NCBI GenBank assembly: GCA_963802145.1
Contig: CAWDHN010000006.1
Span: 7,434-71,433, forward strand
Length of the DNA: 64,000 bases
Source of the DNA: an uncultured Rikenellaceae bacterium
GTDB taxonomy: Bacteria > Bacteroidota > Bacteroidia > Bacteroidales > VadinHA17
Reading direction: 5' to 3'
Below the pieces are notes generated by a model, which ran no database searches, was not told the DNA's origin, and saw only the letters and a list, made by a program, of their open reading frames with translations. Position numbers and translations under genes: made by a program. Position 1 is the stretch's first letter; each line of letters opens with the position of its first letter. This document shows positions 12,034 to 62,228 of the stretch, in pieces.

Positions 12034-12100
12034 GTACATTCTGAAGGTATCCGTGCGCCCTCCGGCGAACGGATACCATATATATATATTTAATAAGGTC

Positions 12101-13288: not shown

Positions 13289-13331
13289 AACTAAAAGCTT
13301 ATTAAATTAAATTTACATCCAAAATCGTTTG

Positions 13332-13404
13332 AGCCGATGATGAGAGTTGAACTCATGACCCCTTCCTTACCAAGGAAGTGCTCTACCCCTGAGCTACATC
13401 GGCG
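13332..13404 (-). tRNA. tRNA-Thr (anticodon GGT)
   Basis: Cloverleaf with acceptor GCCGATG/CATCGGC, anticodon loop TTGGTAA and T-loop TTCAACT. Confidence 0.9.
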
Positions 13405-13409
13405 AATTG

Positions 13410-13482
13410 AGCGGGAGACGAAATTCGAATTCGCGACCCTTAGCTTGGAAGGCTAATGCTCTACCAACTGAGCTACTCCCGC
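13410..13482 (-). tRNA. tRNA-Gly (anticodon TCC)
   Basis: Cloverleaf with acceptor GCGGGAG/CTCCCGC, anticodon loop CTTCCAA and T-loop TTCGAAT. Confidence 0.9.
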
Positions 13483-13554
13483 TTATATCTTAAAACCGGC
13501 ACCCGGGTTACCCACCTGCAGGGAAAGAGTGCATTAATGCTGGCACTGTAAGTG

Positions 13555-13637
13555 TGGGGAGAGCAGGATTCGAACCTACGAAGTCTTCAGACAACAGATT
13601 TACAGTCTGCCCCAGTTGGCCACTTTGGTATCTCCCC
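13555..13637 (-). tRNA. tRNA-Tyr (anticodon GTA), long variable arm
   Basis: 83 nt with acceptor GGGGAGA/TCTCCCC, anticodon loop CTGTAAA (ACTGTAAAT in context) and T-loop TTCGAAT. Confidence 0.9.
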
Positions 13638-13685
13638 GTGTTTACAGTACATGCCTGGTTAGACATACATACTCATCACAAAATG

Positions 13686-13759
13686 AGCCGATGAAGGGAT
13701 TCGAACCCCCGACCTGCAGATTACAAATCAGCTGCTCTGGCCAACTGAGCTACATCGGC
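13686..13759 (-). tRNA. tRNA-Thr (anticodon TGT)
   Basis: Cloverleaf with acceptor GCCGATG/CATCGGC, anticodon loop TTTGTAA and T-loop TTCGAAT. Confidence 0.9.
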
Positions 13760-15369: not shown

Positions 15370-16482
15370 TCATTTCAAAACTTTTGATGAAATAAATTCA
15401 TAATCGTTGCCCGCAGCGCCCGGGGAGGGCCTTACATAGGGAGCCAGACGCTCAGCCTGCTGCGTGCTGATGATCTTGTTGCCGACCATCGACCCCAGCG
15501 TCAGAGGGGGATCAGTGAGTGTCCTGAACCTGCTTATCAGCCTTGCGGTTTCATAACCCACATAGGGATGGCGTGCAAGATCACCGAAGGAAACGCTGTC
15601 GAGGAGCAGGGGCGCGACGGAATCAAAGGTCAGTGTCAACATGGGGGTTATCAGGCTGACGACAGAGCTGTCGAGGCCATATACCTCCCTGAGCTGGTCT
15701 GTTGCGACAAAACCGCCAAGCAGTGCGCGGTACTTTATTATCCTCGCCGAGAGTACCGGTCCGATGCCCGGCAGGCTCTCCAGCTCCTCTGCACTGCACC
15801 TGTTAAGATCGATAAGCACCACCGGTGACTCCCCTGGCGCCCCCTCTGCAGGAGTCCCACGCCCGGATGACGGGGAATACGCTGACTGAGTCCCACGCCC
15901 GGATGACGGGGAATACGCTGCCGGAGCCCCATGCCCGGATGACGTGGAGTACCGGTCAGCAGGCCTTGCTTCAGGAAAGTACCTGTCAGCCCTCCCGGCT
16001 CCCTCTGCCGGAGTGGTCGCCGACCCGTACGATACCTTTCCGGCAGGATCCTCTGCAATAATAATATACGGACCAAGGCGTGCGGCTGTTGATGAGTCTA
16101 TCCCGTAAACCCTGGCCAGATCTTCAGGCCGCCGGAACCTTGCACCGCTGTTACGGTAGTTTATAAGCGTGCCTGCCTGCTTCCCGGTAAGCCCCAGCCG
16201 CAGCAGGTCATCGTACGGGACCGTGTTGGGATCAAATGTGAAGAGCTCCGGGCTGAGGCTCGCATCTGCACCGTTGCCTGCCGTACTGTCGGCCGGTGCC
16301 GCGGGAGGCCTGAGATCGTCAGGCACCCTGCCGGGCCTGAGAGCGGTAAATCTCACCATTATAAGTACTATGAGCAATACCGACAGCAGGTACGTACCCC
16401 GCCTCTCCCGGCGGTCAAAACCGAATAACCCGGCAGCGATCTTCCTGAATGGCTTCACATCTGATACAGCAAGAGACAGCAC
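15370..16482 (-). CDS. ComEA-like helix-hairpin-helix DNA-binding protein with a low-complexity repeat linker
   Basis: 370 aa with one N-terminal TM helix and HhH motifs (LTGKQAGTLINYR; LESLPGIGPVLSARIIKYR). The central linker carries the repeat YSPSSGRGT. Confidence 0.75.
   Translation of the reverse strand: MLSLAVSDVKPFRKIAAGLFGFDRRERRGTYLLSVLLIVLIMVRFTALRPGRVPDDLRPPAAPADSTAGNGADASLSPELFTFDPNTVPYDDLLRLGLTGKQAGTLINYRNSGARFRRPEDLARVYGIDSSTAARLGPYIIIAEDPAGKVSYGSATTPAEGAGRADRYFPEARPADRYSTSSGHGAPAAYSPSSGRGTQSAYSPSSGRGTPAEGAPGESPVVLIDLNRCSAEELESLPGIGPVLSARIIKYRALLGGFVATDQLREVYGLDSSVVSLITPMLTLTFDSVAPLLLDSVSFGDLARHPYVGYETARLISRFRTLTDPPLTLGSMVGNKIISTQQAERLAPYVRPSPGAAGNDYEFISSKVLK
15854..15961. repeat. 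36-bp tandem repeat, 3 units, inside the ComEA-like CDS
   Basis: Units at 15854-15889 and 15890-15925 are nearly identical (gtcccacgcccggatgacggggaatacgctg...). The third unit is diverged. They encode the repeats (A/Q)SAYSPSSGRGT. Confidence 0.9.
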
Positions 16483-16520: not shown

Positions 16521-16631
16521 GATTTGCGAACTGCGATTTGCGATTTGCGAATGGGGTGTTTGGCTTGAGATTTGCGATTTGGGATCTGGGTATTTTTAAA
16601 ATCGGCAATCGAAAATCTTAAATCGCAAATC
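16521..16631 (-). repeat. Heptad-hairpin intergenic element, copy A (full element with an internal insertion)
   Basis: It starts at the base after the TAG stop (16632-34) of the OMP gene. Read on the minus strand: GATTTGCGATTTAAGATTTTCGATTGCCGATTTT...CATTCGCAAATCGCAAATCGCAGTTCGCAAATC. The 12-mers 16569-16580 and 16620-16631 are perfect reverse complements. Confidence 0.85.
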
Positions 16632-18998
16632 CTAAAACGGATATCCAATCCCGATGACCATCGTCAGATCATCCCTGCGGTCAAAGGTGCCGTTCAGGGG
16701 TATCCACTTGGACCCCTCCGTGGCCATGGGATCGCGGAGTTTCATTCCAAAATCGGCCCTCAGGAGCACGAATTTGATGTCGAACCTTAATCCCGCCCCT
16801 GCCCCTACAGCGATATCGTCAAGGAAGGTATCAAACCTGAACTGGCTGCCGGGTCTGTCCTCATCAGGCTTTACGGTCCATATATTGCCCACATCAACAA
16901 ACGTTGCACCCTCAAGTATCCAGAAGAGCTTGAACCGGTATTCGATGTTGGCCTCCAGTTTCATGTCGGAAGTCAGGTTGATGAATGTACTCTCCTCGGG
17001 CATGACATAGGAGCCGGGACCGAGGGTCCGTACCACCCACGCCCTGATATCATTGGAGCCGCCACCGAAATACTGCTCCTCGAAGGGCATGACCTTTGAG
17101 TTCCCGTAGGCCCATCCTACGCCGGCATACCACCTGTAGACGATACTGCTTGCATCATTGAACCTGTAATTATACGCAGCATCCACCTCTGCCTTGATGA
17201 ATTGCGCAAAGGGCTGCCCGAAGAGGTGGTATGTACCGTCTGAAGCCTTCTCCGCGTTACCCAGGGAGTAAAACATGTTGAGCAGGTTACCGGCGATATC
17301 AAGTCCGAGGCGTATGTTCCAGTAATCCTTTGACTTAGGGATCAACTGGTTGTTGAAGACATAATCGTACCGTCCGCCCACAATCCTGACGTCGCGGTAA
17401 GAAGAGGCAAGGTATGAGGTGGTATCAATCATCGCCTGGTATTCGGGATCAACATAATGCATCTTGACCACATTGAACGACAGTGGAATGATATTGAATT
17501 TCGTGCGTTTGTTGCCAATCCACGAGTAGCCGAGGGATATATTGGCGACTGAGCGCGCGTAGACCGGCACCATCTGGAAGTTATAACCCGCCTGAAATAC
17601 CGTTCGGGGGTCATGGTCGCGGATAAACTTCTCCTTTTCGGGGATTGGCAAAAGGAATTTTGGCAGCCTGAGATTGGCTTCAAAGCCGTACTGCTGTATA
17701 TTCTCGAATCCTGCAGACTCGTCGTTGACAGATTCATATGCCCCCTGCAGCTTCAGGCTGAAGACCTCTGCGCCTCCGAAAAGGCTTTTGTTCTGATATA
17801 TCAGGTTCAGTGCTCCGCCAAGGTTACCTCCCCAATTTGTTGTACCTTCGAGCTCAACGGTGAATGACTGCCTCATCAGGGGAGTGAGCTGAATGATGCA
17901 GTCGAGCATGCCCACATCTCTCCTTTCACCGGTAATGCCTTCTGCATCGATGTATGACACATTAACAAGCCTGTGGTTCTTGAGATCGGCCAGGTGAGTT
18001 TCCGTCTGCCTGGCATTTGTCTGGCTGAACCACGCCCCGGGTGCGACATAGAGTGCCTGGGTCAGCACCTCGGGCTTGACCAGCTGCCTGCCGGGCGGTG
18101 CGACGAAGTGGATCCCCTTGTAAAAAGTTGTGTCAAAGGTCATGGTGTATGCCTCCCCTGCCGTGAGTGACAGACTGGGATCAAAGTCAGGAAAGACATA
18201 TACATCCCTTACCCGGTACATCCGGTGGTTGCTGTATTCCGGCCGGCCCTTGCTGTCCAGGGTGCTCCTTAGGGTAACGACATACTGTACAATGACCTGG
18301 TGGTTCATCTGCGTACTGTCAATACGGAAATAGATATTCTCCGACGAGAAGGTGAAAAAACCCAGGTCCCTTATGAAGAGTTCCAGTCTCTGGCGCTCAC
18401 GCTGGAGAAGGTCTACATCGTATATCATCCCCCTCTTCACGGTGCAGTTCGACGTGTCCATCATCACGAAGGTGGAAAGGATAGTATCCTGAATATCATA
18501 CTGTACGCTGGCTATTGTATAGGGTCTGCCGGGGTCAACGGCATACTGTACCCTGGCCTCTCTCTTTTCGGTCTTCACCGTGTCTGCGACCCTGGCATTG
18601 AAAAACCCCTTTGACCAAAGGTAGCTCTCTATCTGTCCGGCTGATCTGTCTGCCGCTGCGGGATCAAATACCACCGGCTCCTCGCCGATCCTTCTCAGCC
18701 ACCCGTGGGGCCACTTGCTCTTCTCAATATTTGAAAGGTTATAGAGCCCGAGGTGGAACCTGGCGCCAAAGATCTTCTTGTTTGGCTGTTGCCGGAGATA
18801 AGGTTTTATCGCACTCTTGCTGACCGTTGATGGCAACGGCACGCTGCTCTCTTTCAGCACAATCACGTTGCTGTTCAGGAGCAAGTCGTCTCTTGGGACA
18901 TATTTTGTGGGGTTGCAGGAGGCTACCGTAAAAATAATGATCACCAGCAGAAACAGTTTGGGAGCAGTAATTTTTATATTTGTTCTCTGATGGATCAA
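16632..18998 (-). CDS. BamA/TamA (Omp85) family outer membrane protein, lipoprotein-type signal
   Basis: Long ORF with a beta-barrel-like C-terminus ending in F. The track start (GTG at 19067) overlaps the divergent trmH gene and a -7 box. An in-frame TTG at 18998 gives (M)IHQRTNIKITAPKLFLLVIIIFTVASC. The start position is an inference. Confidence 0.75.
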   Translation of the reverse strand: MIHQRTNIKITAPKLFLLVIIIFTVASCNPTKYVPRDDLLLNSNVIVLKESSVPLPSTVSKSAIKPYLRQQPNKKIFGARFHLGLYNLSNIEKSKWPHGWLRRIGEEPVVFDPAAADRSAGQIESYLWSKGFFNARVADTVKTEKREARVQYAVDPGRPYTIASVQYDIQDTILSTFVMMDTSNCTVKRGMIYDVDLLQRERQRLELFIRDLGFFTFSSENIYFRIDSTQMNHQVIVQYVVTLRSTLDSKGRPEYSNHRMYRVRDVYVFPDFDPSLSLTAGEAYTMTFDTTFYKGIHFVAPPGRQLVKPEVLTQALYVAPGAWFSQTNARQTETHLADLKNHRLVNVSYIDAEGITGERRDVGMLDCIIQLTPLMRQSFTVELEGTTNWGGNLGGALNLIYQNKSLFGGAEVFSLKLQGAYESVNDESAGFENIQQYGFEANLRLPKFLLPIPEKEKFIRDHDPRTVFQAGYNFQMVPVYARSVANISLGYSWIGNKRTKFNIIPLSFNVVKMHYVDPEYQAMIDTTSYLASSYRDVRIVGGRYDYVFNNQLIPKSKDYWNIRLGLDIAGNLLNMFYSLGNAEKASDGTYHLFGQPFAQFIKAEVDAAYNYRFNDASSIVYRWYAGVGWAYGNSKVMPFEEQYFGGGSNDIRAWVVRTLGPGSYVMPEESTFINLTSDMKLEANIEYRFKLFWILEGATFVDVGNIWTVKPDEDRPGSQFRFDTFLDDIAVGAGAGLRFDIKFVLLRADFGMKLRDPMATEGSKWIPLNGTFDRRDDLTMVIGIGYPF

Positions 18999-19021
18999 TT
19001 TACCGGTAACATAGGTGCAAG

Positions 19022-19029
19022 CAAATATA
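19022..19029 (-). promoter_or_regulatory. -7 box (TATATTTG) for the Omp85-family gene
   Basis: The minus strand reads TATATTTG, matching TAnnTTTG, 24 nt upstream of the proposed TTG start. Confidence 0.4.
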
Positions 19030-19070
19030 CCATTATAAACTCTATTTTCAATCACTGAACAATGCACAGG

Positions 19071-19844
19071 ATGATCACCCGAAATCAGGCAAAAATGATA
19101 CTCTCACTGCAGAAGAGAAAGGTAAGGGAGGAGAACTCCCTCTTTGTCATCGAGGGTGATAAACTGGTTCGTGAGTATATCATGGCCGGTAACAGGGTAT
19201 CGCTTCTGGCAGGAAAGCCCGAGTGGATCGACGGTGAGCCTGAGGCGGTGATTGCGGGGGCAGATGAGATAGTCACTGTCAGCTATGAAGAGCTCCGGCG
19301 CATCAGCTCGCTGAAGACACCGCACAATGTGCTGGCCCTGGCGCCCATGGCAAAAGGCGATTACTCTGATCATCTCCTTACCGGGAGAGTCACTCCTGTG
19401 CTCGAGTATGTTCAGGACCCCGGGAATCTTGGAACAATAATACGTATTGCCGCCTGGTTCGGCATGTCAAACATTGTCTGTTCGCCCGACTGTGTCGACT
19501 TTTACAATCCGAAAGTGATACAGGCGACCATGGGGGCATTCATGCACGTCAGTGTATGGTACCGGCCACTGGAATCGTTTCTGGGGAAGGCAGTGACTGA
19601 TGGGATTCCGGTCTACGGGGCTACCATGGACGGGCGTTCGATATATGACGCTGATATCGGCGGTGAAGGCATTATTCTGTTTGGAAACGAATCGAGAGGT
19701 ATCTCCGATAAACTGCTTGGCTATGTGACCCGGCACATCACCATCCCCGGCCCCCCCAGGCCTCTGGCAGGAATTGAGTCTCTGAATGTAAGCATGGCCG
19801 CGGCCATCGTCTGTTCCGAATTTGCAAGGCGGAAACGTAGCTGA
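19071..19844 (+). CDS. TrmH/SpoU-family RNA 2'-O-methyltransferase
   Basis: Motifs DPGNLGTIIRIAAWFG, ILFGNESRGIS and ESLNVSMAAAIV. The likely start is the ATG at 19071 (MITRNQAK); the track starts at 19062. Confidence 0.88.
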   Translation: MITRNQAKMILSLQKRKVREENSLFVIEGDKLVREYIMAGNRVSLLAGKPEWIDGEPEAVIAGADEIVTVSYEELRRISSLKTPHNVLALAPMAKGDYSDHLLTGRVTPVLEYVQDPGNLGTIIRIAAWFGMSNIVCSPDCVDFYNPKVIQATMGAFMHVSVWYRPLESFLGKAVTDGIPVYGATMDGRSIYDADIGGEGIILFGNESRGISDKLLGYVTRHITIPGPPRPLAGIESLNVSMAAAIVCSEFARRKRS

Positions 19845-19852
19845 GAGGGACA

Positions 19853-19969
19853 GACTTCAGTCTTCAGTCTTCAGTCTTCAGTCCTCAGTCCTCAGTCTTG
19901 TCAATAGGCCTAACCATCTGTTTATTAATTCTTAATTCCTGCGACTGCCGACTGCTGACTGCCGACTGG
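19853..19969. repeat. Inverted (CAGTCNN)n heptamer arrays filling a convergent intergenic region (element F)
   Basis: The left array at 19853-19899 is (CAGTCTT)3(CAGTCCT)2CAGTCTT. The right array at 19939-19969 is CTGCGACTGCCGACTGCTGACTGCCGACTGG, the reverse complement of (CAGTCNN)4. Confidence 0.85.
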
Positions 19970-19970
19970 A

Positions 19971-21512
19971 TTACTGCCTGTCACGCGCCACTCTCCCGGC
20001 CACCAGCATGCCGTCGACTGCCGATGAGACGATGCCTCCGGCGTAGCCCGCTCCTTCACCTGCAGGAAATAATCCTTCAACATTGATCGCATTGAGCTTT
20101 TCAGGGTCACGGGTTATACGCACCGGCGAGGAGGTACGTGATTCCACTGCTGCCACGAGGGCCTCACCCGTAAGATAACCCTTCATCTTCTTCCCGAAAT
20201 CCCTGAACCCCTCACGCAACCGCATGGAGATCTCCTGTGGCAGCCACTCGTGCAGTGGCGAGGCCGTCAGGCCGGGGAAATATGATCCCTCCGGCAGTGT
20301 TGCCGATGCTCTTCCATCAACAAAATCAGTGAGCCTCTGTGCCGGAGCCCGCTGTGTCATGCCTCCTTCCCTCCATGAAAGCTGTTCAAGGAACGACTGG
20401 TATTCCAGCCCTGCAAGGGCTCCTCCCCCATAATGTATCGCATCCTCCTCCCTTATCTCCGTGACAATGCCGCTGTTTGCCCACCGCGAGTTGCGCCGCG
20501 ATGGTGACATGCCGTTCACCACCACCTCACCGGGACTGGTTGCCGAGGGTACCATGAAACCGCCGGGGCACATGCAGAATGAGTATACGCCGCGGCCACC
20601 GGCCTGCGTCACCAGGTTGTATGCGGCAGCCGGGAGGTACTGGCCTCTCGCCTTGCCGTGATACTGTATGCGGTCAATCAACTCCTGCGGATGCTCGACC
20701 CTGACTCCCATGGCAAACGGTTTGTATTCGAGACTCACTCCCAGGGAAGCGAGAATATGGTATATATCCCTTGCTGAATGGCCTGTGGCGAGAATAATAT
20801 CATCAGCCCTGAACTCCTCGTTGCCGTTGACTGTCACCCCCCGGAAGAGGCCGTTCTCAATCATCATTCCAGTGATGCGCTTCCCGAAGAGCACCTCTCC
20901 CCCTGCTCCGGTTATGCTCTCCCGTATTGCCGTTACGACTCCCGGCAGCCTGTCGGTGCCCAGATGGGGATGGGCCTCATACAGTATCGCCGGATCAGCA
21001 CCGTGCAGGACGAGCAATTCGACCACCCGGCGGTTGTCGCCTCTCTTCTTCGACCTGGTGTAGAGCTTTCCGTCAGAGAAGGTGCCTGCCCCGCCCTCAC
21101 CGAAGCAGTAATTTGAGTCTGAATCCACAATATGTTTTGTGCTGATGGCTGCCACATCCCTCTTGCGCTCCTTCACCTCCCTGCCCCGCTCCAGAATCAC
21201 AGGCTTCAGTCCCGCCTCAATCAGGCTCAGCGCCGCAAAGAGTCCAGCGGGGCCGCTGCCTGCCACGAGCACCTCCCTTGCCCGGGAGACATCCCTGACC
21301 TTCAGCGGCGGTATCACCTCAGGGGGTTCTCCGGCACCGATGATCTGAACGGTAATGTTGATTTTTATCTCCGGCCTGCGGGCATCAACGGATCGCCGGA
21401 CGATGCGCATGGTGAAATCATCCCTCCCGGTCTTCCTGACCAGATAAGTCCTGAGCGAAGCCTCGTCAAAGGCTGTCTGAGGAGGCAGAACCAGGCTCAG
21501 CTCCTCAGCCAT
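19971..21512 (-). CDS. FAD-dependent oxidoreductase (COG2509-like uncharacterised dehydrogenase)
   Basis: 513 aa with the dinucleotide-binding motif VLVAGSGPAGLFAAL and the C-terminal FPAGEGAGYAGGIVSSAVDG. Confidence 0.75.
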   Translation of the reverse strand: MAEELSLVLPPQTAFDEASLRTYLVRKTGRDDFTMRIVRRSVDARRPEIKINITVQIIGAGEPPEVIPPLKVRDVSRAREVLVAGSGPAGLFAALSLIEAGLKPVILERGREVKERKRDVAAISTKHIVDSDSNYCFGEGGAGTFSDGKLYTRSKKRGDNRRVVELLVLHGADPAILYEAHPHLGTDRLPGVVTAIRESITGAGGEVLFGKRITGMMIENGLFRGVTVNGNEEFRADDIILATGHSARDIYHILASLGVSLEYKPFAMGVRVEHPQELIDRIQYHGKARGQYLPAAAYNLVTQAGGRGVYSFCMCPGGFMVPSATSPGEVVVNGMSPSRRNSRWANSGIVTEIREEDAIHYGGGALAGLEYQSFLEQLSWREGGMTQRAPAQRLTDFVDGRASATLPEGSYFPGLTASPLHEWLPQEISMRLREGFRDFGKKMKGYLTGEALVAAVESRTSSPVRITRDPEKLNAINVEGLFPAGEGAGYAGGIVSSAVDGMLVAGRVARDRQ

Positions 21513-21514
21513 GA

Positions 21515-22237
21515 CTATTCAAAATGGAAAGAGAGAACCCACATCTGGGACCGCATCGACTGGATCGAATTGACGTATTCGGGATGACGGTCATCAGGTT
21601 CATGTACCAGGACGTCGAACAGGCCGTTGGACATCTTTGCTTCAATGGTGAGCTTGAAATATGGCAGGTAGAAGTCTATCCCCGCCCCTATCTCATAATA
21701 TAAGTCGGCCCTCTTCAGCCTCATCGATACGTTGCGCGAGTCATCATACTCCTTCTTGCCTGCCAGGTCATACCTGAAGTTCACGCCGCCGATAACATAA
21801 GGCCTGGAGTTGTTCAGCCTCATCCCCTTGTATTTTATGAGCAGAGGGAACTCGAGGAATGATGATTCCAGGATCTGCGTCTCCCCCCACAGGGTGCCGG
21901 TCGTATCGTAGAAATTAATGTTCCGCTGTCCGAATGAGACTCCCGGAAGGAACCTTATATCAAGATAGGTCGCCGGACGGTAGTCAGTGACAATCTGTAT
22001 GTTCAGGCCGGGTTTGAGAGAGACAACTTCAGCCTGGAGTGCGGACTCACTGTTCATTTTAATATTGAAGTCCATGGTGTTGGCTCCCATGCTGAAACCG
22101 AAATGCAGCAGCCTCTCGTCGTAATTCGAGTCATTCTTGGGTTTCGCTTTCTGTGCTGTCAGCACGACAGGGATCAATAGAAAGAGAAATATGGCAGTCC
22201 TTTTATTCACTGGTACGAAGAGTCCTAATAAACACAA
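21515..22237 (-). CDS. PorT-like outer membrane beta-barrel protein
   Basis: 240 aa with a signal peptide, alternating beta-strand pattern and a terminal F. It lies directly downstream of ubiE/menG, an arrangement I recall for porT/sprT in Bacteroidota. The family assignment is from memory. Confidence 0.55.
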   Translation of the reverse strand: MCLLGLFVPVNKRTAIFLFLLIPVVLTAQKAKPKNDSNYDERLLHFGFSMGANTMDFNIKMNSESALQAEVVSLKPGLNIQIVTDYRPATYLDIRFLPGVSFGQRNINFYDTTGTLWGETQILESSFLEFPLLIKYKGMRLNNSRPYVIGGVNFRYDLAGKKEYDDSRNVSMRLKRADLYYEIGAGIDFYLPYFKLTIEAKMSNGLFDVLVHEPDDRHPEYVNSIQSMRSQMWVLSFHFE

Positions 22238-22272
22238 CGCAAAAATTCCCGATTAATTGCATCCGGAATTCA

Positions 22273-23016
22273 TCATGGTCTGAAACCATGGTATATACTG
22301 GCTATCCCTCCTGTCAGCCTCGTCTGTTTCACCCCGGTAAAGCCCGCCAGTAGCATCAGTTCCAGGAACCGTTCATTGTCGGGAAATGACATCACCGATT
22401 CGGGCAGGTATGTATAGGCGTCAGGGTCGCCTGACACTTTCCTTCCTATCCGCGGAAGTATCCGTCTGAAATAGAGTCCGTATATCTGTTTCAGGGGGAA
22501 CCACGAGGGCCTGGAAAACTCCAGTACCATTATCATTCCTCCCGGTCTGAGTACCCTGCACATCTCGCGGAGGCCGGCACCTGTATCTTCAAAGTTACGG
22601 ACGCCGAAGGCAGACATCGTCACGTCAAATGTCCCGTCGCCAAATTCCATTGTCTGCGAGTCGCCCTTAACAAGCTCTATCCTCTCTCCGAGACCCATCC
22701 GGGTGATCTTCCGGCGGCCCTCCTCAAGCATCTTTCCGCTTATGTCTATCCCGGTGACCTTTTGCGGCCCGAGCTTCAGGGCCTCTATGGCCAGGTCACC
22801 TGTGCCCGTGGCCACATCAAGCATGGTTACCGGTCTGATATGAAAGCCTATGAGGTCAATCGCCCTGCTCCTCCAGCGTCTGTCGGTACCCATCGACAGG
22901 ATCCGGTTGAGCCTGTCATAATGCTTCGAAATGGAATCGAACATCGCCTCCACCTGTTCCTTCGGAGCACCTTTATGTTGTTTTTTGTCAGGCATCATTT
23001 TGCAATGGAGCGCCAA
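22273..23016 (-). CDS. ubiE: Demethylmenaquinone/ubiquinone methyltransferase
   Basis: Contains MFDSISKHYDRLNRILSMGTDRRWR and the SAM motif LDVATGTGDLA. The true start may be the MPDKK Met a few codons into the ORF. Confidence 0.9.
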   Translation of the reverse strand: MALHCKMMPDKKQHKGAPKEQVEAMFDSISKHYDRLNRILSMGTDRRWRSRAIDLIGFHIRPVTMLDVATGTGDLAIEALKLGPQKVTGIDISGKMLEEGRRKITRMGLGERIELVKGDSQTMEFGDGTFDVTMSAFGVRNFEDTGAGLREMCRVLRPGGMIMVLEFSRPSWFPLKQIYGLYFRRILPRIGRKVSGDPDAYTYLPESVMSFPDNERFLELMLLAGFTGVKQTRLTGGIASIYHGFRP

Positions 23017-23064
23017 AGATACCCTTAAAATTGTTTACATTTACCCCTCTTAAACAGATATCCC

Positions 23065-23829
23065 ATGAGAAAGACTGTACTTATCACCGGTGCAACCTCA
23101 GGCATCGGAGAAGCGACCGCAATCAAGTTCGCAGAAGCATCTGACAGACTAATTATTACAGGCAGAAGGAAAGAGAGACTTGACGAGCTCACCGGGCATC
23201 TTGTCACCACCTACGACGTAGAGGTCCTCTCTCTCTGTTTTGACGTAAGGGTAAAGAGTGAGGTGGATAAGCATCTCGGCAACCTCCCTGATGACTGGAA
23301 GAAGATAGATATCCTTGTCAACAATGCCGGGCTGGCAGTCGGACTCGGTCATATTGACAAAGGAGACACTGACGACTGGGACCGAATGATCGACACCAAT
23401 GTCAAGGGGCTGCTCTATGTCACCCGGGCTGTCTCTCCGGGGATGGTGGAGAGGGGTTCCGGTCACATAATAAATATCTCCTCCATTGCCGGCAAGGAGG
23501 TATATGAGAACGGGTCGGTCTACTGTGCATCCAAGCATGCCGTCGACGCTCTTTCGAAGGCGATGCGCATCGATCTGCTGAAGCACGGCATAAAAGTTAC
23601 GAACATAGCCCCGGGCATGGCGGAGACGGAGTTCTCCCTGGTACGCTTTAAGGGTGACAGTGACAGGGCATCTGCGGTTTATACCGGCATCCAGCCCCTG
23701 AGAGGCGAAGATATTGCAGAAGCAATCCATTATTGTACCAGCCTGCCGGATCACGTCTGCATTAATGATCTCGTGATCACTCCGAAGGCACAGGCAAACG
23801 CAACAAACAGTTACAGAAAAACAGAATAA
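23065..23829 (+). CDS. SDR-family NAD(P)-dependent oxidoreductase (YdfG-like)
   Basis: TGATSGIG cofactor motif, NNAG, and the catalytic YCASK. Confidence 0.88.
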   Translation: MRKTVLITGATSGIGEATAIKFAEASDRLIITGRRKERLDELTGHLVTTYDVEVLSLCFDVRVKSEVDKHLGNLPDDWKKIDILVNNAGLAVGLGHIDKGDTDDWDRMIDTNVKGLLYVTRAVSPGMVERGSGHIINISSIAGKEVYENGSVYCASKHAVDALSKAMRIDLLKHGIKVTNIAPGMAETEFSLVRFKGDSDRASAVYTGIQPLRGEDIAEAIHYCTSLPDHVCINDLVITPKAQANATNSYRKTE

Positions 23830-23831
23830 CA

Positions 23832-26800
23832 ATGAAAAGAACAATCCTTGTATCAATCCTGATCACTGCACTGCTTTCGATGGCAGTACAGGATATGAAT
23901 GGCATAAATACATCCGATACCAGGATGATGTCACAGCCGGCTGTCAGCCCATCACATATTGCTTTCATCTATGCAGAGGACCTTTGGGTAATGAATGCCG
24001 ACGGCTCCTCGCCCAGGCGGCTGACCGTGGATGAAGGGATCGAGTCTGACCCCTGCTTCTCTCCTGACGGTAAGCTGATTGCCTTCAGCGCCCAGTACGA
24101 CGGCAACACAGACGTCTTCATCATTCCTGTCGAAGGCGGCTTGCCCGTGAGGCTCACCTGGCACCCGGGAAACGACATTGTCAGTGGTTTTACCCCGAAT
24201 GGCACGAGTGTCTTGTTTTCATCTCAGAGGTCATCATTCACCAGCAGGTACACCCAGCTCTATACCATTGGTATCAGCGGCGGTTACCCCGTGAAGCTGC
24301 AGATACCCAACGCCTATGATGCAACATACTCTCCTGACGGCAGAAGGATGGCCTATATCCCGATAGCCCCCAGGCACGGTCAGTGGAAGAACTACAGGGG
24401 CGGGACAGTGTCAACCATCTGGGTATATGAATTTGCAGACCGCTCCGTGGTGAAAATTCCCCAGCCTGATGGAGGGTGCAATGACACTGAGCCAATGTGG
24501 ATCGGAGATAAAATATATTTCGTGAGCGACAGGAACGGTGAGTTGAACCTCTTTTCCTATAATGTCAGCGGGGGTGAGATCCTTCAGCTTACGAAATATG
24601 ACGATTTCCCTGTGCTGAAGGCTTCAGCCTCCACCGGCAGGATAGTCTTTGAACAGGCCGGTTATCTGCATTCTCTTGAGATTGCCACCGGTGCTGCGGC
24701 TAAACTGAAGGTGGGCATTGCAGCTGACCTGCTTGAATTGAGGCCCCGCTACATTCAGGGCCCTAACTACATCCGCAGCGGCGACATCTCCCCAACCGGC
24801 AGTCGCGTTGTGTTTGATTACAGGGGAGAGATTATCACACTTCCTGCCGAGAAGGGAGATCCGAGAAACATAACCCTTACCCCAGGTGCACATGAAACAT
24901 ACCCCTCCTGGTCACCTGACGGGAAGACAATCGCCTTTTTCTCCGATGCCTCGGGGGAATACACCCTCCACCTCAAGCCGCAGGACGGTAAAGGAGAACC
25001 GAAGATATTCACACTTCCGGGAACAGGTTTTTATGCTTTCCCGAAATGGTCACCAGACAGCAAAAAGATCACCTTCGTTGACAACGGGAGGAACTTTTAC
25101 CTGCTTGACATTCAGTCAGGAATAATCAACAAGATCGCTTCTGACGACCTGTACGTCCCGGACCCCTTCAGGGCAATGTCCGGCGACTGGTCATCAGACT
25201 CCAGATGGATCGCTTACACCAGAGTAATGCCAACTTACTTCAGGGTTGTCTACCTCTATTCCGTTGATCAGCAGAAGTCATTCCCCGTCACCGACGGATT
25301 GAGCGACGCCTCTGAACCGGTCTTCGATCCCAATGGAGAATATATTTATTTCTTTGCATCCACTGATGCCGGGCCGGTATTGAACTGGTTTGACCTTTCA
25401 TCGGCAGATATGAGGAGTACAAGCTCAATCTACCTCGTTACACTGAGAAAAGAGATCACCTCCCCCTTTGCAAAGGATAGTGATGAGGAGAAAGGCACAG
25501 AGGAGAAGGCTGATGCTGAGGCGCCTGCCCCCAATGCCCCCGGTAAAACCACAAAAAAAGATGCAAAGAAGGATCCTGCACCTGAGGTTAAGGCGAATTT
25601 GATGAAGATCGATACCGAAGGACTGCAGGAAAGAATTGTCAATGTACCGGTCTCTGCCGGCAACTATACCAATCTTGGAGTTGCCGCAACGGGAGAGATA
25701 CTCTACATTGAAAGGCCTGACGGTCAGGGCGCGTCGAAGCTTCACAAATATTCTGTAAAAGACAGGAAGGATGAGGAGGTGATGGAGCTTGACAACTACG
25801 CTGTCAGCGCTGACCGTAAGAAAATGCTCTATAACAAGGGGATGACATTCGGGATATCCGCCGCCGGCAAGAAGCCGGAACCGGGAAAAGGGATCCTCAA
25901 CACCGGAGCCCTCTCTGTCAGGATCGATCCGGTTGCCGAGTGGCCTCAGATATTTGACGAGGCATGGAGGATCAACCGCGATTACTTCTATGACCCGGGG
26001 ATGCATGGTGCCGACTGGAAGGCCATGAGGGTGAAGTATTCTCAGTTCCTGCCTGACGTTGCATGCAGAAGTGACCTCAACCGGGTGATACAGTGGATGT
26101 GCAGCGAACTCTCCGTTGGCCACCACAGGGTTGGCGGCGGCGACAGGATGAGCACTCCCCCGAGAGTGGGAGGCGGATTGCTTGGCGCCGACTTCAGCGT
26201 GGAAAACAACCGGTACCGTTTGAAGAAGATCTACGGCGGACTGAACTGGAGCCCCGACCTGAGGTCACCGCTGACAGAACCGGGACTGAACGTGAAGGAG
26301 GGTGAGTATATCCTTGCCATCGACGGTAAGGATGTCACAGCTGACAGGAATATACACTCATTCCTTGAAAATACAGACGGCAAGCTAATCGAGCTGACAG
26401 TAGGCCCCAATCCCGTTTATGCAGGATCAAGGGTGATAAAGGTTGTGCCTGTGGGCAATGAAAGCAGCCTGCGTAACCGCGACTGGGTAGAGGGGAACCT
26501 CAGGAAGGTGACCGAAGCCACGGACGGCCGCGTGGCATATGTCTATGTCCCCAATACATCAAACCAGGGACATGAGTATTTCAAGAGATATTTCTTCCCG
26601 CAGGCAGACAGGCAGGCGATCATCATTGATGAGAGGTTCAACGGAGGCGGATTGATAGCCGATTATTATATTGACCTTCTGCAGCGGCCCCTGCAGTCGT
26701 ACTGGAACATGCGCTACGGCAAAGACCTCAAGACACCCAGCGCTTCAATCCAGGGACCCAAGGTAATGATCATCGATGAGACAGCCGGATCAGGAGGGGA

Positions 26801-27131
26801 TATGCTTCCCTGGATGTTCAGGAAATTCAAGGTCGGAACACTTGTTGGCAAACGGACCTGGGGAGGCCTGGTGGGAACACTCGGATTTCCCGAGCTTATG
26901 GATGGAGGCATGGTGACGGCACCCAACCTGGCTATCTGGACTGACGAAGGTTTTATAGTGGAAAACGTAGGGGTGGCCCCGGACATTGAGGTTGAACAAT
27001 GGCCTGCAGATGTCATTGAGGGAAGGGATCCTCAGCTTGAGAAAGCCATTGAGGTGGCGCTCAGGGAGCTTGAGAAGAACCCGCCAGCCGAGCCGGTGAG
27101 GCCGCCATATCCGGTGAGGGTGAGGAAATAA
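23832..27131 (+). CDS. Tricorn-protease-like S41 peptidase (beta-propellers, PDZ, S41 domain)
   Basis: 1099 aa with a signal peptide, TolB/WD40-like repeats (SPDGK..IAF repeated), and a C-terminal S41 region (IDERFNGGG, TAGSGGD). Confidence 0.85.
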   Translation: MKRTILVSILITALLSMAVQDMNGINTSDTRMMSQPAVSPSHIAFIYAEDLWVMNADGSSPRRLTVDEGIESDPCFSPDGKLIAFSAQYDGNTDVFIIPVEGGLPVRLTWHPGNDIVSGFTPNGTSVLFSSQRSSFTSRYTQLYTIGISGGYPVKLQIPNAYDATYSPDGRRMAYIPIAPRHGQWKNYRGGTVSTIWVYEFADRSVVKIPQPDGGCNDTEPMWIGDKIYFVSDRNGELNLFSYNVSGGEILQLTKYDDFPVLKASASTGRIVFEQAGYLHSLEIATGAAAKLKVGIAADLLELRPRYIQGPNYIRSGDISPTGSRVVFDYRGEIITLPAEKGDPRNITLTPGAHETYPSWSPDGKTIAFFSDASGEYTLHLKPQDGKGEPKIFTLPGTGFYAFPKWSPDSKKITFVDNGRNFYLLDIQSGIINKIASDDLYVPDPFRAMSGDWSSDSRWIAYTRVMPTYFRVVYLYSVDQQKSFPVTDGLSDASEPVFDPNGEYIYFFASTDAGPVLNWFDLSSADMRSTSSIYLVTLRKEITSPFAKDSDEEKGTEEKADAEAPAPNAPGKTTKKDAKKDPAPEVKANLMKIDTEGLQERIVNVPVSAGNYTNLGVAATGEILYIERPDGQGASKLHKYSVKDRKDEEVMELDNYAVSADRKKMLYNKGMTFGISAAGKKPEPGKGILNTGALSVRIDPVAEWPQIFDEAWRINRDYFYDPGMHGADWKAMRVKYSQFLPDVACRSDLNRVIQWMCSELSVGHHRVGGGDRMSTPPRVGGGLLGADFSVENNRYRLKKIYGGLNWSPDLRSPLTEPGLNVKEGEYILAIDGKDVTADRNIHSFLENTDGKLIELTVGPNPVYAGSRVIKVVPVGNESSLRNRDWVEGNLRKVTEATDGRVAYVYVPNTSNQGHEYFKRYFFPQADRQAIIIDERFNGGGLIADYYIDLLQRPLQSYWNMRYGKDLKTPSASIQGPKVMIIDETAGSGGDMLPWMFRKFKVGTLVGKRTWGGLVGTLGFPELMDGGMVTAPNLAIWTDEGFIVENVGVAPDIEVEQWPADVIEGRDPQLEKAIEVALRELEKNPPAEPVRPPYPVRVRK

Positions 27132-27215
27132 AATTGCGATTTAAGATTTTCGATTGTCGATTTAAAAAACATTCGCAAATCGCAAATCGCAAATCGCAAA
27201 TCGCAAATCGCAAAT
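27132..27215 (+). repeat. Heptad-hairpin intergenic element, copy B (archetype)
   Basis: It starts at the base after the TAA stop (27129-31): AATTGCGATTTAAGATTTTCGATTGTCGATTTAAAAAACATT followed by (CGCAAAT)x6 at 27174-27215. The left arm is four degenerate NNGATTT heptads complementary to the right array. Confidence 0.9.
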
Positions 27216-27244
27216 ACTAACTACTTTCGACTAACCCCTCAGAC

Positions 27245-28324
27245 ATGTACGACCACAAATATCTGTTAGAATTCACCACTGAACTCTTCATGCGCATAGG
27301 CTGCAGCCGCGATGATGCCGGCGCTGTTGCCTCGGTGCTCATTGCTGCCGAGCTGCGCGGACACTCATCGCACGGCATGATAAGGATCAAGGAGTACTAT
27401 GACCTATGGAAGACAGGGCGGGTGAATGTAACCCCGGAGGTTAAGGTAGTTCACCAGACCCCTTCTACCGCTGTGGTCGACGGCGACAGGTGCTTCGGGA
27501 TGGTGGCAGGCATGAAGTCCATGAAGCTGGCTATTGAAAAGGCTGCGACCACTGGTACTGGGTGGGTGGCGACAAAAAACTCAAACCACTTCGGGATAGC
27601 CGGGTACTATGCCATGATGGCTCTTGAGCATGATATGGTAGGGATATGCGTCACTAACGCCAACCCCCTGGTGGTGCCCACCTGGTCGGTGAGCCGGTAC
27701 CTCGGTACCAATCCCCTTGCCGTGGCTGTACCGGCACTGCAGGAACCTCCCTTCATTGCCGATTTTGCCACTACCCCTATCGCCCGGGGAAAGCTCGCCG
27801 TATCCGAAAAGAAGGGCGAGAAGGTGCTGCTGGGATTTGTGCAGGATGCCGAGGGCAACCCGTCGGATGATCCTGGCATTCTTCGGCGTGGAGGCGGCAT
27901 GCTGACCCTTGGAGGCGATCGTCCCCACGGGAGCCATAAGGGTTACTGTATGGCAGCCGTGGTAGACATATTCAGTTCTGTCTTCAGCGGTGCCAACTTC
28001 GGGCCTTTTGTGCCACCAAGCGTGGCCTACCTGCCTGTGCCCGAAAACCAGCCGGGTGAGGGAACAGGACATTTCTTCGGGGCCATGCGCATCGATGCCT
28101 TCAGGCCGGCGGATGAATTCAAGAGCTCAATGGACCAGTGGATAAAAACATTTCGTAGTGCAAAACCGATAAAGGGGGAGACAAGGGTACTGATACCCGG
28201 TGATCCTGAACGGGAAGCAGAGGAGCAGAACAGGAAATCCGGAATTAAGCTGGTTCCTGCAGTGGTTGATGACCTCCGCACGCTGGCCACCACACTGGGA
28301 GTCGAATTCCGGGAAAGTGTCTGA
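27245..28324 (+). CDS. Ldh_2 family (malate/L-lactate/sulfolactate-type) dehydrogenase
   Basis: 359 aa containing GHSSHGMIRI, SNHFGIAGYY and GSHKGY, which are characteristic of the Ldh_2 family. Confidence 0.8.
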   Translation: MYDHKYLLEFTTELFMRIGCSRDDAGAVASVLIAAELRGHSSHGMIRIKEYYDLWKTGRVNVTPEVKVVHQTPSTAVVDGDRCFGMVAGMKSMKLAIEKAATTGTGWVATKNSNHFGIAGYYAMMALEHDMVGICVTNANPLVVPTWSVSRYLGTNPLAVAVPALQEPPFIADFATTPIARGKLAVSEKKGEKVLLGFVQDAEGNPSDDPGILRRGGGMLTLGGDRPHGSHKGYCMAAVVDIFSSVFSGANFGPFVPPSVAYLPVPENQPGEGTGHFFGAMRIDAFRPADEFKSSMDQWIKTFRSAKPIKGETRVLIPGDPEREAEEQNRKSGIKLVPAVVDDLRTLATTLGVEFRESV

Positions 28325-28440: not shown

Positions 28441-28533
28441 CTGCTGACTGCCGTCCCGACGCACTTCGTGGCCGGGATTGAGCCTCCTCCTACGTCGGAG
28501 TCTCAAACTGCCGGCTGAGGACTTACCCTTCCC
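28441..28533 (+). repeat. Mosaic intergenic element G: heptads, conserved 60-nt two-hairpin core, GGCTGAGGAC module
   Basis: CTGCTGACTGCC, then the core 28453-28512 (GTCCCGACGCACTTCGTGGCCGGGATTGAGCCTCCTCCTACGTCGGAGTCTCAAACTGCC), then GGCTGAGGACTTACCCTTCCC. The core aligns with the reverse complement of 54203-54260. The last module aligns with 56663-56684. Confidence 0.8.
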
Positions 28534-28606
28534 TGCAATCTGGCTGCTCGCTGTAATGACCCACCGGGTCATTACTTAACGCTCGCCCCTCGACTGGTCT
28601 GCTGTC

Positions 28607-32764: not shown

Positions 32765-32786
32765 CGGCAGCCTGCTGAATGCAAAA

Positions 32787-32820
32787 AAAACCGGTTCTGT
32801 TCCCAGAGCCGGTTTTTTTA
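32787..32820. terminator. Bidirectional intrinsic terminator
   Basis: A-run, then AACCGGTTCT-GTTCCC-AGAGCCGGTT (one G:U pair), then a T-run. It lies 23 nt after the stop of the BNR protein. Confidence 0.75.
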
Positions 32821-32821
32821 T

Positions 32822-32905
32822 AAGTCATAAAGTCTTGAAAATTTGCGATTTGCGATTTGCGATTTGCGATTAAATCGACAATCGAAAATCTTAAATCGAA
32901 AATTC
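32822..32905 (-). repeat. Heptad-hairpin intergenic element, copy C
   Basis: Read on the minus strand, beginning 12 nt after the msrBA stop: GAATTTTCGATTTAAGATTTTCGATTGTCGATTTAA followed by (TCGCAAA)x4. On the plus strand this is (ATTTGCG)x4 at 32841-32868. It ends in TAAGTCATAAAGTCT nonamer-like units. Confidence 0.88.
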
Positions 32906-32914: not shown

Positions 32915-33850
32915 CTAGAAACGTTTGGTATACGCATGGCAATAAGGAACCTTCCCGTTCCGGAAATAGTAATCCTGGTGATATTCCTCTGCAGGATAGA
33001 ACTCAGAGGCCTTCGTAACCTCCGTGGCTACCTTCACTCCCTTTGCCTTCAGCACTCCCAGCAGCTTCTCCGCCACCTTCTTCTGGTCAGCGTTCTTGTA
33101 GAAGATCTCCGAGCGGTACTGGTCACCTATGTCAGGGCCCTGTCTCCCGATCTGTGTGGGGTCATGTATCTCCAGGAAGAGCATAAGCAGTTTTTCGTAC
33201 GAAGTCTTCTTCAGGTCATACGTCACCTTCACTGTCTCGGCATGTCCGGTCCTGCCTGTAACAACCTCGCGGTAAGAGGGATTTTTAACATGGCCGCCTG
33301 TGAAGCCTGAAACTACGGCCACAACACCCGGTTCTTTCTGAAGGAAGTACTCCACCCCCCAGAAGCATCCCCCGGCGAACAGTGCGGTACCATAGTTACC
33401 GGCAGGGAGAACCGCCGGCACAAAATCGAGGGAGACAGAGTTGACGCAGTGACGGGTATTCTTCGGGGTAAAACCCTCTCCTGTGAAGACATGACCCAGG
33501 TGTCCGTTGCATGATGCACACACTATCTCAGTACGCATGCCGTCAGCATCCCTTATACGTTTGACCGCACCGTCTATCTCATCGTCAAAGCTGGGCCAGC
33601 CGCAGCTGGCATCGAACTTGGCATCAGACTGGTACAGCGCATTGCCGCACTGCTTGCAGAGATAGGTACCCTTGCCATTGAACTTTTCATATATTCCAGT
33701 GAACGGATATTCCGTTGACTTACTGATAATTATCTTAGATTCTTCCGAAGTAAGATCATTGTATGCAGGTCTATCCTGCGATGTCATTTCCTTTTCCATT
33801 GAAAGCAAAGCTATGGTAAAAAATAATGTAGTATAAATGTGTGATTTCAT
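32915..33850 (-). CDS. msrAB: Bifunctional methionine sulfoxide reductase B/A, secreted
   Basis: Signal peptide, an MsrB part (CKQCGNALY...CGWPSF...CASCNGHLGHVF), then an MsrA part (FAGGCFWGVEYF). Confidence 0.92.
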   Translation of the reverse strand: MKSHIYTTLFFTIALLSMEKEMTSQDRPAYNDLTSEESKIIISKSTEYPFTGIYEKFNGKGTYLCKQCGNALYQSDAKFDASCGWPSFDDEIDGAVKRIRDADGMRTEIVCASCNGHLGHVFTGEGFTPKNTRHCVNSVSLDFVPAVLPAGNYGTALFAGGCFWGVEYFLQKEPGVVAVVSGFTGGHVKNPSYREVVTGRTGHAETVKVTYDLKKTSYEKLLMLFLEIHDPTQIGRQGPDIGDQYRSEIFYKNADQKKVAEKLLGVLKAKGVKVATEVTKASEFYPAEEYHQDYYFRNGKVPYCHAYTKRF

Positions 33851-54894: not shown

Positions 54895-54952
54895 CGCTTC
54901 TTTAAAGTGACGGCAAATATATAAACTTCTTGCGAGAGGGGGGTAAAAAAAA

Positions 54953-55049: not shown

Positions 55050-55053
55050 CGCA

Positions 55054-62208: not shown

Positions 62209-62228
62209 CGATCAAGCAGAAAACAAGC

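Follow-up and report, generated by a model that had tools for sequence, protein, structure and literature searches.

We analysed a stretch of 64,000 nt from an uncultured Rikenellaceae bacterium (contig CAWDHN010000006.1), referred to below as the window, in which a hairpin made of 7-nt repeats follows the stop codon of a tricorn-like protease gene, at positions 27136-27215. This element is probably (we put the probability at roughly 0.55) a member of a lineage-specific family of mosaic, extragenic palindromic repeats, composed of slippage-prone heptads and evolving at the level of DNA. The evidence comes from the recurrence of an identical arm at unrelated spacers of related genomes and from the changes that the element has undergone at orthologous spacers. 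In the initial annotation, it was regarded as the archetype of an orientation-fixed RNA element of the 3' untranslated region (3'-UTR), a reading that the sequence comparisons below have weakened.

The hairpin and its dispersed relatives

The element noted in the initial annotation proved to be real, and its arm, its A-rich loop and its six perfect CGCAAAT units were all confirmed (Table 1). The arm begins 4 nt past the TAA stop codon, after the tetranucleotide AATT. It reads GCGATTTAAGATTTTCGATTGTCGATTT, with AAATCGACAATCGAAAATCTTAAATCGC as its reverse complement, and Tandem Repeats Finder (TRF) scored the array at 6.1 copies with a 100% match (27173-27215). When the arm was compared with (GCGATTT)4, 5 of the 28 positions differed, so that 23 of 28 can pair into one interrupted stem, as had been claimed. 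The predicted RNA fold had an energy of -24.2 kcal/mol (z = -4.16; none of 200 shuffles was as stable), and the DNA fold had an energy of -18.6 kcal/mol (z = -3.67). The upstream gene encodes a tricorn-type protease with the Pfam domains PD40, PDZ_Tricorn, Tricorn_C1 and Peptidase_S41, and the downstream gene, with its ATG at 27245, belongs to the Ldh_2 family. No T-run is present in the rest of the spacer in front of this ATG, where remnants of 9-mer and CAGAC-type units (ACTTTCGACT, CTCAGAC) can be recognised.

Three copies are distinguished in the window: A (16524-16631), B (27136-27215, the element described above) and C (32841-32903). An arm search of the window located the arm of copy A at 16599-16626, with 2 mismatches, and that of copy C at 32872-32899, in agreement with the two further near-identical arms reported before. 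Each is paired with a (GATTTGC)n array, and both copies gave the same interrupted hairpin upon folding (z = -3.37 for A and -2.41 for C). In all three copies, the degenerate arm lies toward the stop codon of a gene; copy C is 11 to 15 nt past the msrAB stop on the minus strand, and the next minus-strand gene after copy A is 42 nt downstream. Five AAATCGC-array loci in the window had been claimed, and their coordinates were confirmed (16524-16631, 27136-27215, 32841-32903, 54263-54283 and 56692-56723). The AAATCGC dimer AAATCGCAAATCGC, with one mismatch at most, matched the window 15 times, against 0.05 matches expected from shuffles.

The core of the arm is dispersed in relatives. According to an exact scan, the 20-mer CAATCGAAAATCTTAAATCG is present at 24 loci in species-representative genomes and at 17 loci in metagenomes. 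An identical core of 20 to 28 nt was found at the 3 window sites and in at least 14 non-orthologous spacers of at least eight Bacteroidales genomes. At about a dozen loci of Rikenellaceae or other Bacteroidales metagenome-assembled genomes (MAGs; loci carry L numbers), the arm was identical, the flanks were conserved and the modules recurred in the same order. The flanks around the 28-nt arm often read GATT...AAAATTCCTCT, and the order (AAAGTCYRT)n, (GATTTGC)n, arm, AAAATTCCTCT, (TGCCTAT)n was found in L006, L008, L009, L012, L019 and L040. A palindromic unit is thus joined to other short motifs in a recurrent order, as in a bacterial interspersed mosaic element (BIME), and all Bacteroidales copies examined fold into the interrupted hairpin of copy B. 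In the model that we favor, the core arm AAATCGACAATCGAAAATCTTAAATCG pairs with the (GCGATTT)n array, and arrays of other short units (9-mers of the AAAGTCYRT type and TGCCTAT heptads) often flank this core in a fixed order. The earlier proposal of a dispersed hairpin family resembling BIMEs or repetitive extragenic palindromic (REP) sequences is supported by the recurrence at these 14 or more spacers.

Microsatellite drift had been considered less likely than a dispersed family, and our results agree. Independent drift in each spacer, with no copying between sites, would be consistent with the slippage clearly active between L042 and L043 (see below), and with the reported finding that heptanucleotide units rank first among the long simple-sequence repeats of many bacteria (Mrazek 2007). 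It is nevertheless highly improbable as a general explanation, since three substitutions (C in unit 2 and TT in unit 3) are shared, together with the flanks, by 14 or more unrelated spacers, and the composite order recurs as well. Because the identical 28-nt arm, often with conserved flanks, is found at unrelated spacers, it is not a product of plain in situ drift; drift is contradicted for the arm and possible for the solitary perfect arrays.

No named counterpart was found. A scan of the window at the Rfam gathering threshold and e-value scans of two copies matched no family at the element, the latter giving only sub-threshold noise from miRNA hairpins (best score, 22.6 bits against a threshold of 195). 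There was no match by blastn in the plasmid collection, and a full-text literature search for heptad dimers returned nothing relevant. The statement that the element matches no named repeat family therefore held in the Rfam scans and in the literature search on the repeat string.

Orthologous spacers, position and orientation

Locus L022, from the related MAG CAWFSO01, is syntenic with positions 19414-27421 of the window and 91.6% identical over 7.5 kb. Past the orthologous tricorn stop codon, the whole element was reverse-complemented, in the order stop, perfect array, arm, and its loop, once inverted, matched the loop of copy B at 8 of 10 positions. The L022 orthologue of 19845-19970 had arrays different from those of the window. 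None of the other five exact-core copies of CAWFSO01 aligned to the window; therefore, copies A and C are not shared between the two genomes as exact cores. In the more distant L016, the tricorn gene is missing and the element is still present before Ldh_2, and an AAATCG hairpin is found at a spacer where the window has the CAGTCTT family.

Nine further syntenic loci were obtained through homologues of Ldh_2. The orthologous spacers in L042, L044, L045, L047, L049, L051 and L052 contained other arrays of 7- to 9-nt units, GC-rich sequence or only a terminator, so the conservation implied by the term archetype was not found. At the orthologue of the copy C spacer, L052 has a CAGTCTT/GACTGCY composite, and the place of the degenerate arm of L016 is taken in L051 by a perfect (AAATCGA)4. 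The loci L042 and L043 represent a single species sampled twice; across 21,083 nt (99.95% identity), they differ by 4 substitutions and a single indel, one 7-nt GATTTGC unit, the array having 6 units in L042 and 5 in L043. The arrays thus combine tandem 7-nt units in three or more copies, a bias toward noncoding DNA, polymorphism of unit number and a lack of conservation at orthologous genes, as do long simple-sequence repeats (LSSRs) and short tandemly repeated repetitive (STRR) sequences. Read from the sequences, these comparisons showed change at the DNA level in the form of slippage of unit number, inversion of the whole palindrome, copying of the core between spacers and wholesale replacement of arrays. 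On the basis of the syntenic loci (L022, L016, L042/L043, L051 and L052), slippage, inversion and module replacement are much faster than point substitution.

Gene content around these spacers varies too. The tricorn-like gene, of 3.3 kb, is present in the window, L022, L042, L045 and L047, and L016, L049/L050 and L051 lack it; in these loci, an array-bearing spacer comes directly after adh_short, ahead of Ldh_2. The synteny breaks of L044 and L045 fall at array-bearing spacers. A CAGAC motif precedes the Ldh_2 start in several relatives and is not general for the genes of the window.

The arrays are mostly intergenic. Coding sequence, about 200 kb in total, held 4 arrays with a period of 6 to 10 nt, as against more than 40 in spacers totalling about 18 kb. 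In a set partly chosen for carrying the motif, an array was found in 9 of 24 convergent spacers, 12 of 61 tandem ones and 3 of 29 divergent ones. The claimed bias of position was therefore upheld insofar as arrays favor spacers that hold gene 3' ends (convergent versus divergent). Among the 47 genes of the window, 9 are followed by an array that begins within 25 nt past the stop, and the stop codon itself is sometimes inside the array. The claim of a fixed orientation was correct for the three window copies, at 0 to 15 nt past the stop, and failed for the family, in which L022 is inverted and 11 copies with the arm on the side of the stop stand against 3 exceptions (L019, L022 and L009, the last in a divergent spacer), three more copies being left out of this tally. 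Some copies immediately precede a start codon or occupy a divergent spacer, and several arrays reach the next start codon. Since the element is palindromic, the RNA from either strand has a 5' arm of the GAUUU type and a 3' arm of the AAAUCG type whichever way the element is oriented; no copy showed the reverse polarity. We propose that copies would persist where they are least harmful, mostly on the stop-codon side of a spacer, away from the promoter or leader of the next gene, and such persistence alone would yield the pattern of elements right after the stop. The arrays were also considered as promoters for the next gene and rejected as such, the TTTG/TTGAC motifs being on the strand that points into the hairpin and away from that gene.

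The placement behind stop codons could also reflect a selected, orientation-specific RNA element of the 3'-UTR that serves the upstream gene as a 3'-end stabiliser, a processing site or a protein platform. The distance of 0 to 15 nt in the window copies, the 11-to-3 tally and the stable hairpin (z down to -4.2) are what such an element would predict. We consider it unlikely, because a genome 92% identical has the orthologous copy in inverted form, the content of orthologous spacers is not maintained among relatives, and copies occur in a divergent spacer and directly upstream of starts; moreover, the RNA of the palindrome is nearly identical in both orientations, which makes the argument from orientation weak. 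In one subfamily (L003, L007, L009, L012, L019 and L034), the 5' arm GA(A)TTTTGATT pairs with AATCGAAAATC on the AAATCG strand via a G-U wobble, tolerated only in RNA, but this site is a single shared substitution and is not consistently in the mRNA sense. The covariation check proposed earlier was carried out on an alignment of 15 copies, and compensatory double changes were found in 0 of 13 predicted pairs; the pairs are near-invariant, so this test has little power. Because no pair was compensated, the conserved feature of the family, as judged from the alignment, appears to be its sequence rather than its pairing. No evidence of an orientation-specific or gene-specific role was found in the copies compared.

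The hairpin is not a classical terminator, as had been stated from the missing U-tract: no T-run follows copy B, and a pattern scan for terminators reports no site there. A canonical terminator is present in the spacer of copy C (32783-32819; Table 1), missed by the pattern scan owing to one stem mismatch, and the msrAB transcript meets the heptad hairpin before reaching it. For copies A and B, the next co-directional gene is 29 to 42 nt downstream, with no recognisable promoter in between. The element was therefore rejected as a terminator, given the lack of a U-tract, the canonical terminator after copy C and the co-directional genes close behind copies A and B. A non-canonical terminator or a bidirectional roadblock is very unlikely on the same grounds, to which can be added that the stem is AU-rich and interrupted and that solitary arrays do not fold, even though the hairpin is just past a stop codon, convergent spacers are enriched for arrays and several array-bearing convergent spacers have no canonical terminator in the pattern scan.

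In transcripts, the element would be expected to fold, at about -20 to -30 kcal/mol, into a stem-loop located either past the stop codon or in the gap separating two cistrons. If it behaves as enterobacterial REP sequences do, this stem-loop may impede exonucleases that move 3' to 5' and prolong the life of the mRNA upstream; a protective role of this kind is plausible.

AATCG heptads outside the Bacteroidota

The exact 20-mer was also found in Chloroflexota, Terriglobales, Sulfopaludibacter, Opitutaceae, Kiritimatiellales, Cellvibrionaceae and unassigned metagenome contigs, so that the phyla with the 20-mer are Chloroflexota, Acidobacteriota, Verrucomicrobiota, Kiritimatiellota, Gammaproteobacteria and Bacteroidota. 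Outside the last of these, it is typically in short spacers between co-directional housekeeping genes, 8 to 20 nt before an ATG without a Shine-Dalgarno sequence. Examples are the spacers between znuA and an ABC ATPase gene, between genes for NADH-dehydrogenase or hydrogenase subunits, between cysS and thrS, and between a pair of M20 peptidase genes. A significant complementary partner was found upstream in 10 to 11 of 23 non-Bacteroidota loci and never downstream, the hairpin polarity being constant (5'-GATT...AATC-3'); in L001 the partner forms a perfect 19-bp stem. In a biased sample, the remaining letters of the unit are GCA in Bacteroidales and GTC elsewhere, corresponding to TTTG and TTGAC, respectively, on the opposite strand.

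The cysS-thrS spacer of Opitutaceae provided an unbiased check. The motif was present in 2 of 6 lineages and absent from L054 to L057. The thrS leader of Opitutus terrae (L054 3690-3945) and that of L057 (2902-3020) have a hairpin, CCTGCAATCGTAGGCAGG, with the loop U-CGU-A; this loop resembles the anticodon loop of tRNA-Thr, and the hairpin may be an operator for ThrRS. In L010, L013 and L024, also from Opitutaceae, a 40- to 50-nt block of AATCG heptads takes the place of this leader, and cysS is directly joined to thrS. Viral contigs were then scanned, and the first 18 nt of the arm matched 19 times, swapped units 17 times, arbitrary units 12 times and a scrambled core once; the exact 20-mer had no viral match. 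The identity of the 20-mer across phyla, which had suggested the horizontal movement of one block, does not in itself demonstrate such movement, given the presence of the motif in only 2 of the 6 Opitutaceae lineages and the near-equal frequency of swapped units in viruses. Since swapped and arbitrary units (17 and 12 matches) were far more frequent than the scrambled core (1 match), a widespread grammar of AATCG heptads suffices to account for the identity of the 20-mer across phyla, which we read as its product.

Further arrays were noted during these scans. In an AT-rich metagenome contig, AATCG arrays flank a small 23S_rRNA_IVP (PF05635) gene on both sides (L030 2663-2700 and 3066-3120), and this gene adjoins hsdS, the specificity gene of a type I restriction-modification system. 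One high-GC viral contig (L062) has two near-identical AATCG-heptad copies, at 4762-4860 and 12827-12925. In another (L063), arrays are found at three sites, 18 to 39 nt before ATG codons that are preceded by AAAGGAG.

Could AATCG-core arrays be a sequence-specific cis-element of a widely conserved factor, with the hairpin of the window as its Bacteroidales version? Candidate readers are S1 or cold-shock proteins (for an unstructured leader), Rho (for spaced UC dimers) and RNA polymerase (for -35/-33-like TTGACG/TTTG repeats); S1, Csp or CsrA has been proposed for TAACTGA repeats by MacGregor (PMC4679880). The sharing of the 20-mer among six phylum-level groups, its frequent position shortly before an ATG, the 12 to 19 viral matches against 1 for the scrambled core, the constant polarity, a solitary array less structured than its shuffles and the lineage-specific remainder of the unit are all consistent with this proposal, for which the factors named are candidates. 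We nevertheless find it quite doubtful: the sense strand relative to the downstream gene varies (L030 has GATTT in the sense orientation upstream of an ATG), the motif of the Opitutaceae cysS-thrS spacer is not conserved, and the swapped-unit control is as frequent as the target, so that the 20-mer needs no special explanation. A broader and rather improbable version unites AATCG arrays and 5'-(NNCGATT)n...(AATCGNN)n-3' hairpins in one cross-phylum, partly phage-borne class of cis-elements with a conserved cellular reader. If so, the reader would act in translation initiation or standby binding, in an interaction with Rho or RNA polymerase, or in RNA decay; each lineage would have adapted the variable positions of the unit (TTTG type in Bacteroidota, TTGAC type elsewhere), and the hairpin of the window and the (AATCGGG)n of Xanthomonas would be local dialects of one signal.

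The arms could alternatively be the terminal inverted repeats of an element of the MITE (miniature inverted-repeat transposable element) or REPIN type, moved by a REP-associated tyrosine transposase (RAYT) or an IS200/IS605-type transposase encoded elsewhere. An identical core with conserved flanks at many non-orthologous sites, both orientations at one orthologous site, inverted partners of the same polarity in other phyla (such as L001) and two near-identical copies inside single phage contigs would be expected of such an element. However, no transposase gene was seen in the window or the loci (10 window genes were domain-scanned), and no target-site duplication or precise empty site accompanied the inverted arms at the orthologous spacers. 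The ends are blurred by arrays of variable length, the exact core has a low copy number, and the inversion is equally explained by recombination or template switching between the arms. Mobility of this kind is therefore rather unlikely.

Several points weigh against our preferred reading of a lineage-specific repeat that evolves as DNA. The same lack of a transposase, a target-site duplication and a clean empty site in the window and the loci leaves a mechanism of copying unsupported. With 6 exact-core matches in CAWFSO01, the related genome with the best sampling (diverged copies uncounted), and 3 cores in the 64-kb window, the number of exact-core copies looks low, unlike that of classical REP families. 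All statistics given here derive from the 64 kb of the window and from MAG fragments, in some of which arrays contain runs of N. Such N-runs were found within or beside short-unit arrays in several contigs (L016 7920-7945, L019 at about 4190 and L052 at about 8100-8200); the arrays evidently break or confuse assemblies, and copy numbers from MAGs are therefore lower bounds. The tally of 11 to 3 hints at an asymmetry beyond a purely neutral prediction. Array-free spacers carry other hairpins or terminators, a pattern that could also arise if selection favored a hairpin of any kind past the stop. Finally, the recurrence of the AATCG core across phyla and phages suggests a sequence-specific constraint that the repeat model does not explain.

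Further features, significance and known systems

Table 1. Positions of the heptad element, its window copies, related arrays and adjoining features
Feature	Positions	Strand	Basis or remark
TAA stop of the tricorn-like protease gene 23832-27131	27129-27131	+	ORF (open reading frame) list, Pfam, sequence
Degenerate 28-nt arm GCGATTT AAGATTT TCGATTG TCGATTT, 5' side of hairpin (copy B)	27136-27163	+	sequence, fold
A-rich 10-nt loop AAAAAACATT (copy B)	27164-27173	+	sequence, fold
Perfect (CGCAAAT)6 array, 3' side of hairpin, slippage-prone (copy B)	27174-27215	+	sequence, TRF
Remainder of spacer, 29 nt, up to the Ldh_2 ATG at 27245	27216-27244	+	sequence
Copy A: Omp85 gene stop, arm 16599-16626, spacer, broken (CGCAAAT) arrays 16524-16585	16524-16631	-	TRF, sequence, fold, Pfam
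Copy C: (ATTTGCG)4.4 at 32841-32871 abutting arm 32872-32899 plus AAAT	32841-32903	-	TRF, sequence, fold, Pfam
Gene	23832-27131	+	arm-to-stop distance 4 nt
Gene	16632-19067	-	arm-to-stop distance 0-5 nt
Gene	32915-33850	-	arm-to-stop distance 11-15 nt
Canonical bidirectional intrinsic terminator: A8, 11-bp GC stem, T7	32783-32819	.	sequence reading
Sister family: (CAGTCTT)7, 42-nt loop, (CGACTGC)4, convergent spacer	19851-19968	.	TRF, fold
(AAAGTCYRT)n 9-mer array, begins 1 nt past the TrkA gene stop	54130-54199	+	TRF, sequence
Short solitary AAATCGA/AAATCGC array overlapping the TGA stop of the minus-strand Sua5/TsaC gene	54263-54283	+	sequence
Solitary (AATCGCA)4.6 array, convergent spacer, no partner arm	56692-56723	+	TRF, sequence

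Besides the three hairpin copies, the window contains related arrays (Table 1). The sister family at 19851-19968 folds as a heptad zipper, with 5-bp helices between 2x2 internal loops and an energy of -35 to -40 kcal/mol; its CAGTCTT/GACTGCY composite is also found in L052 (about 7950-8060), in a non-orthologous spacer. In relatives, the 9-mer module seen at 54130-54199 usually has the (GATTTGC)n array and the arm as neighbours, the sequence of modules being constant. The array at 54263-54283 is preceded by a GC hairpin, and a similar composite is present in L051. The solitary array at 56692-56723 is unstructured as RNA (z = +1.55), being less structured than its own shuffles.

A second dispersed intergenic element, of about 70 nt and not heptadic, was also observed (CCCTGCAAtCTGGC..CTCGCTAAAATGACCCACCGGGTCATTacTTAACGCTCgCCCCTC). 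In the window it spans 28530-28600, with a core hairpin at 28556-28572, and it was found in L006 (4847-4863), L047 (1412-1428) and L051 (4005-4021), that is, in non-orthologous spacers of four genomes. It has no Rfam match at the gathering threshold and could be a REP-like element or a small RNA. Other features of the window are a cluster of five tRNA genes (11961-13759, minus strand), a Bacteroidales-type small signal recognition particle (SRP) RNA (54949-55056, minus strand) and a tmRNA (61815-62211, plus strand). Repeats within genes comprise a 36-nt unit in 2.8 tandem copies inside an HHH_3 (ComEA-like) gene (15851-15952) and CAG/CAGCAGAAC-type repeats (44477-44846) in the 5' part of the ORF at 44082-46187.

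If the element is indeed a repeat evolving at the DNA level, an unnamed family of uncultured Bacteroidales would be added to the intergenic heptamer repeats, an old class that still lacks an explanation, and the comparisons at orthologous sites would show with unusual clarity how such repeats evolve, namely by slippage, inversion of the whole element and module replacement. This evidence would be of use in the assembly and annotation of MAGs, since arrays coincide with N-runs and contig problems, and possibly as a source of markers for strain typing. The AATCG heptads, of fixed polarity in at least six phyla and in phages, would offer a testable, as yet unproven, handle on a sequence-specific reader.

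Like REP and BIME sequences, the copies are short, imperfect extragenic palindromes, mostly at gene 3' ends, in mosaics and in either orientation. A REP stem-loop stabilises the malE mRNA, and the layout of L001 (a binding-protein gene, the hairpin and an ABC ATPase gene) matches that of malE-malF. REP/BIME and REPIN elements are found in enterobacteria and Pseudomonas (Bertels and Rainey 2011, PMC3116915); in contrast to the heptad arrays, they are not built of tandem heptads, and they have hundreds of copies and are tied to RAYT transposases. Rho-independent terminators share the stem-loop shortly past a stop codon, but the element has no U-tract and its stem is AU-rich and interrupted.

Heptamer repeats are also known from other lineages. 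The STRR sequences of cyanobacteria, reportedly described by Mazel and colleagues in 1990, are said to be several tandem-heptamer families dispersed between the genes of one lineage, with a function that long remained unknown. These heptanucleotide repeats, from Calothrix and Nostoc, are cited in PMC4692102; they have other units (e.g., CCCCAGT) and descriptions of them do not generally mention hairpin pairs next to stop codons. Heptamers are reported to be the commonest LSSRs in many bacteria (Mrazek 2007). TAACTGA repeats occur in Beggiatoaceae, Cyanobacteria and Bacteroidetes, in intergenic positions and often just upstream of starts without a ribosome-binding site, and spacers of Bacteroidetes contain assemblages of heptamer repeats that are missing in close relatives (MacGregor 2015, PMC4679880). 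They resemble the AATCG heptads in that one intergenic heptamer is found across distant phyla; they differ in being almost only direct (with one inverted case), preferentially on the 5' side of genes and of another unit.

The closest published analogue, on our best reading, is provided by the inverted pairs of GGGAATC heptamers in Xanthomonas. According to Rehm et al. (2015, PMC4692102), 89 to 93% of these heptamer repeats are intergenic, the mean distance is 28 nt on the side of the upstream ORF and 160 nt on that of the downstream one, 70 to 75 pairs are inverted, and the genes with repeats beside them are not the same in two related species. As in the family described here, intergenic tandem heptamers are found near the upstream ORF, inverted pairs can form stem-loops, the number of units varies and the repeats are not conserved between species; moreover, the Xanthomonas unit, read as (AATCGGG)n, contains AATCG. 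Unlike the element, however, the Xanthomonas repeats are G-rich and quadruplex-forming, have GGGA.T rather than AATCG as their conserved positions and occupy hundreds of sites per genome, and neither a degenerate 28-nt arm nor a fixed order of modules has been described for them.

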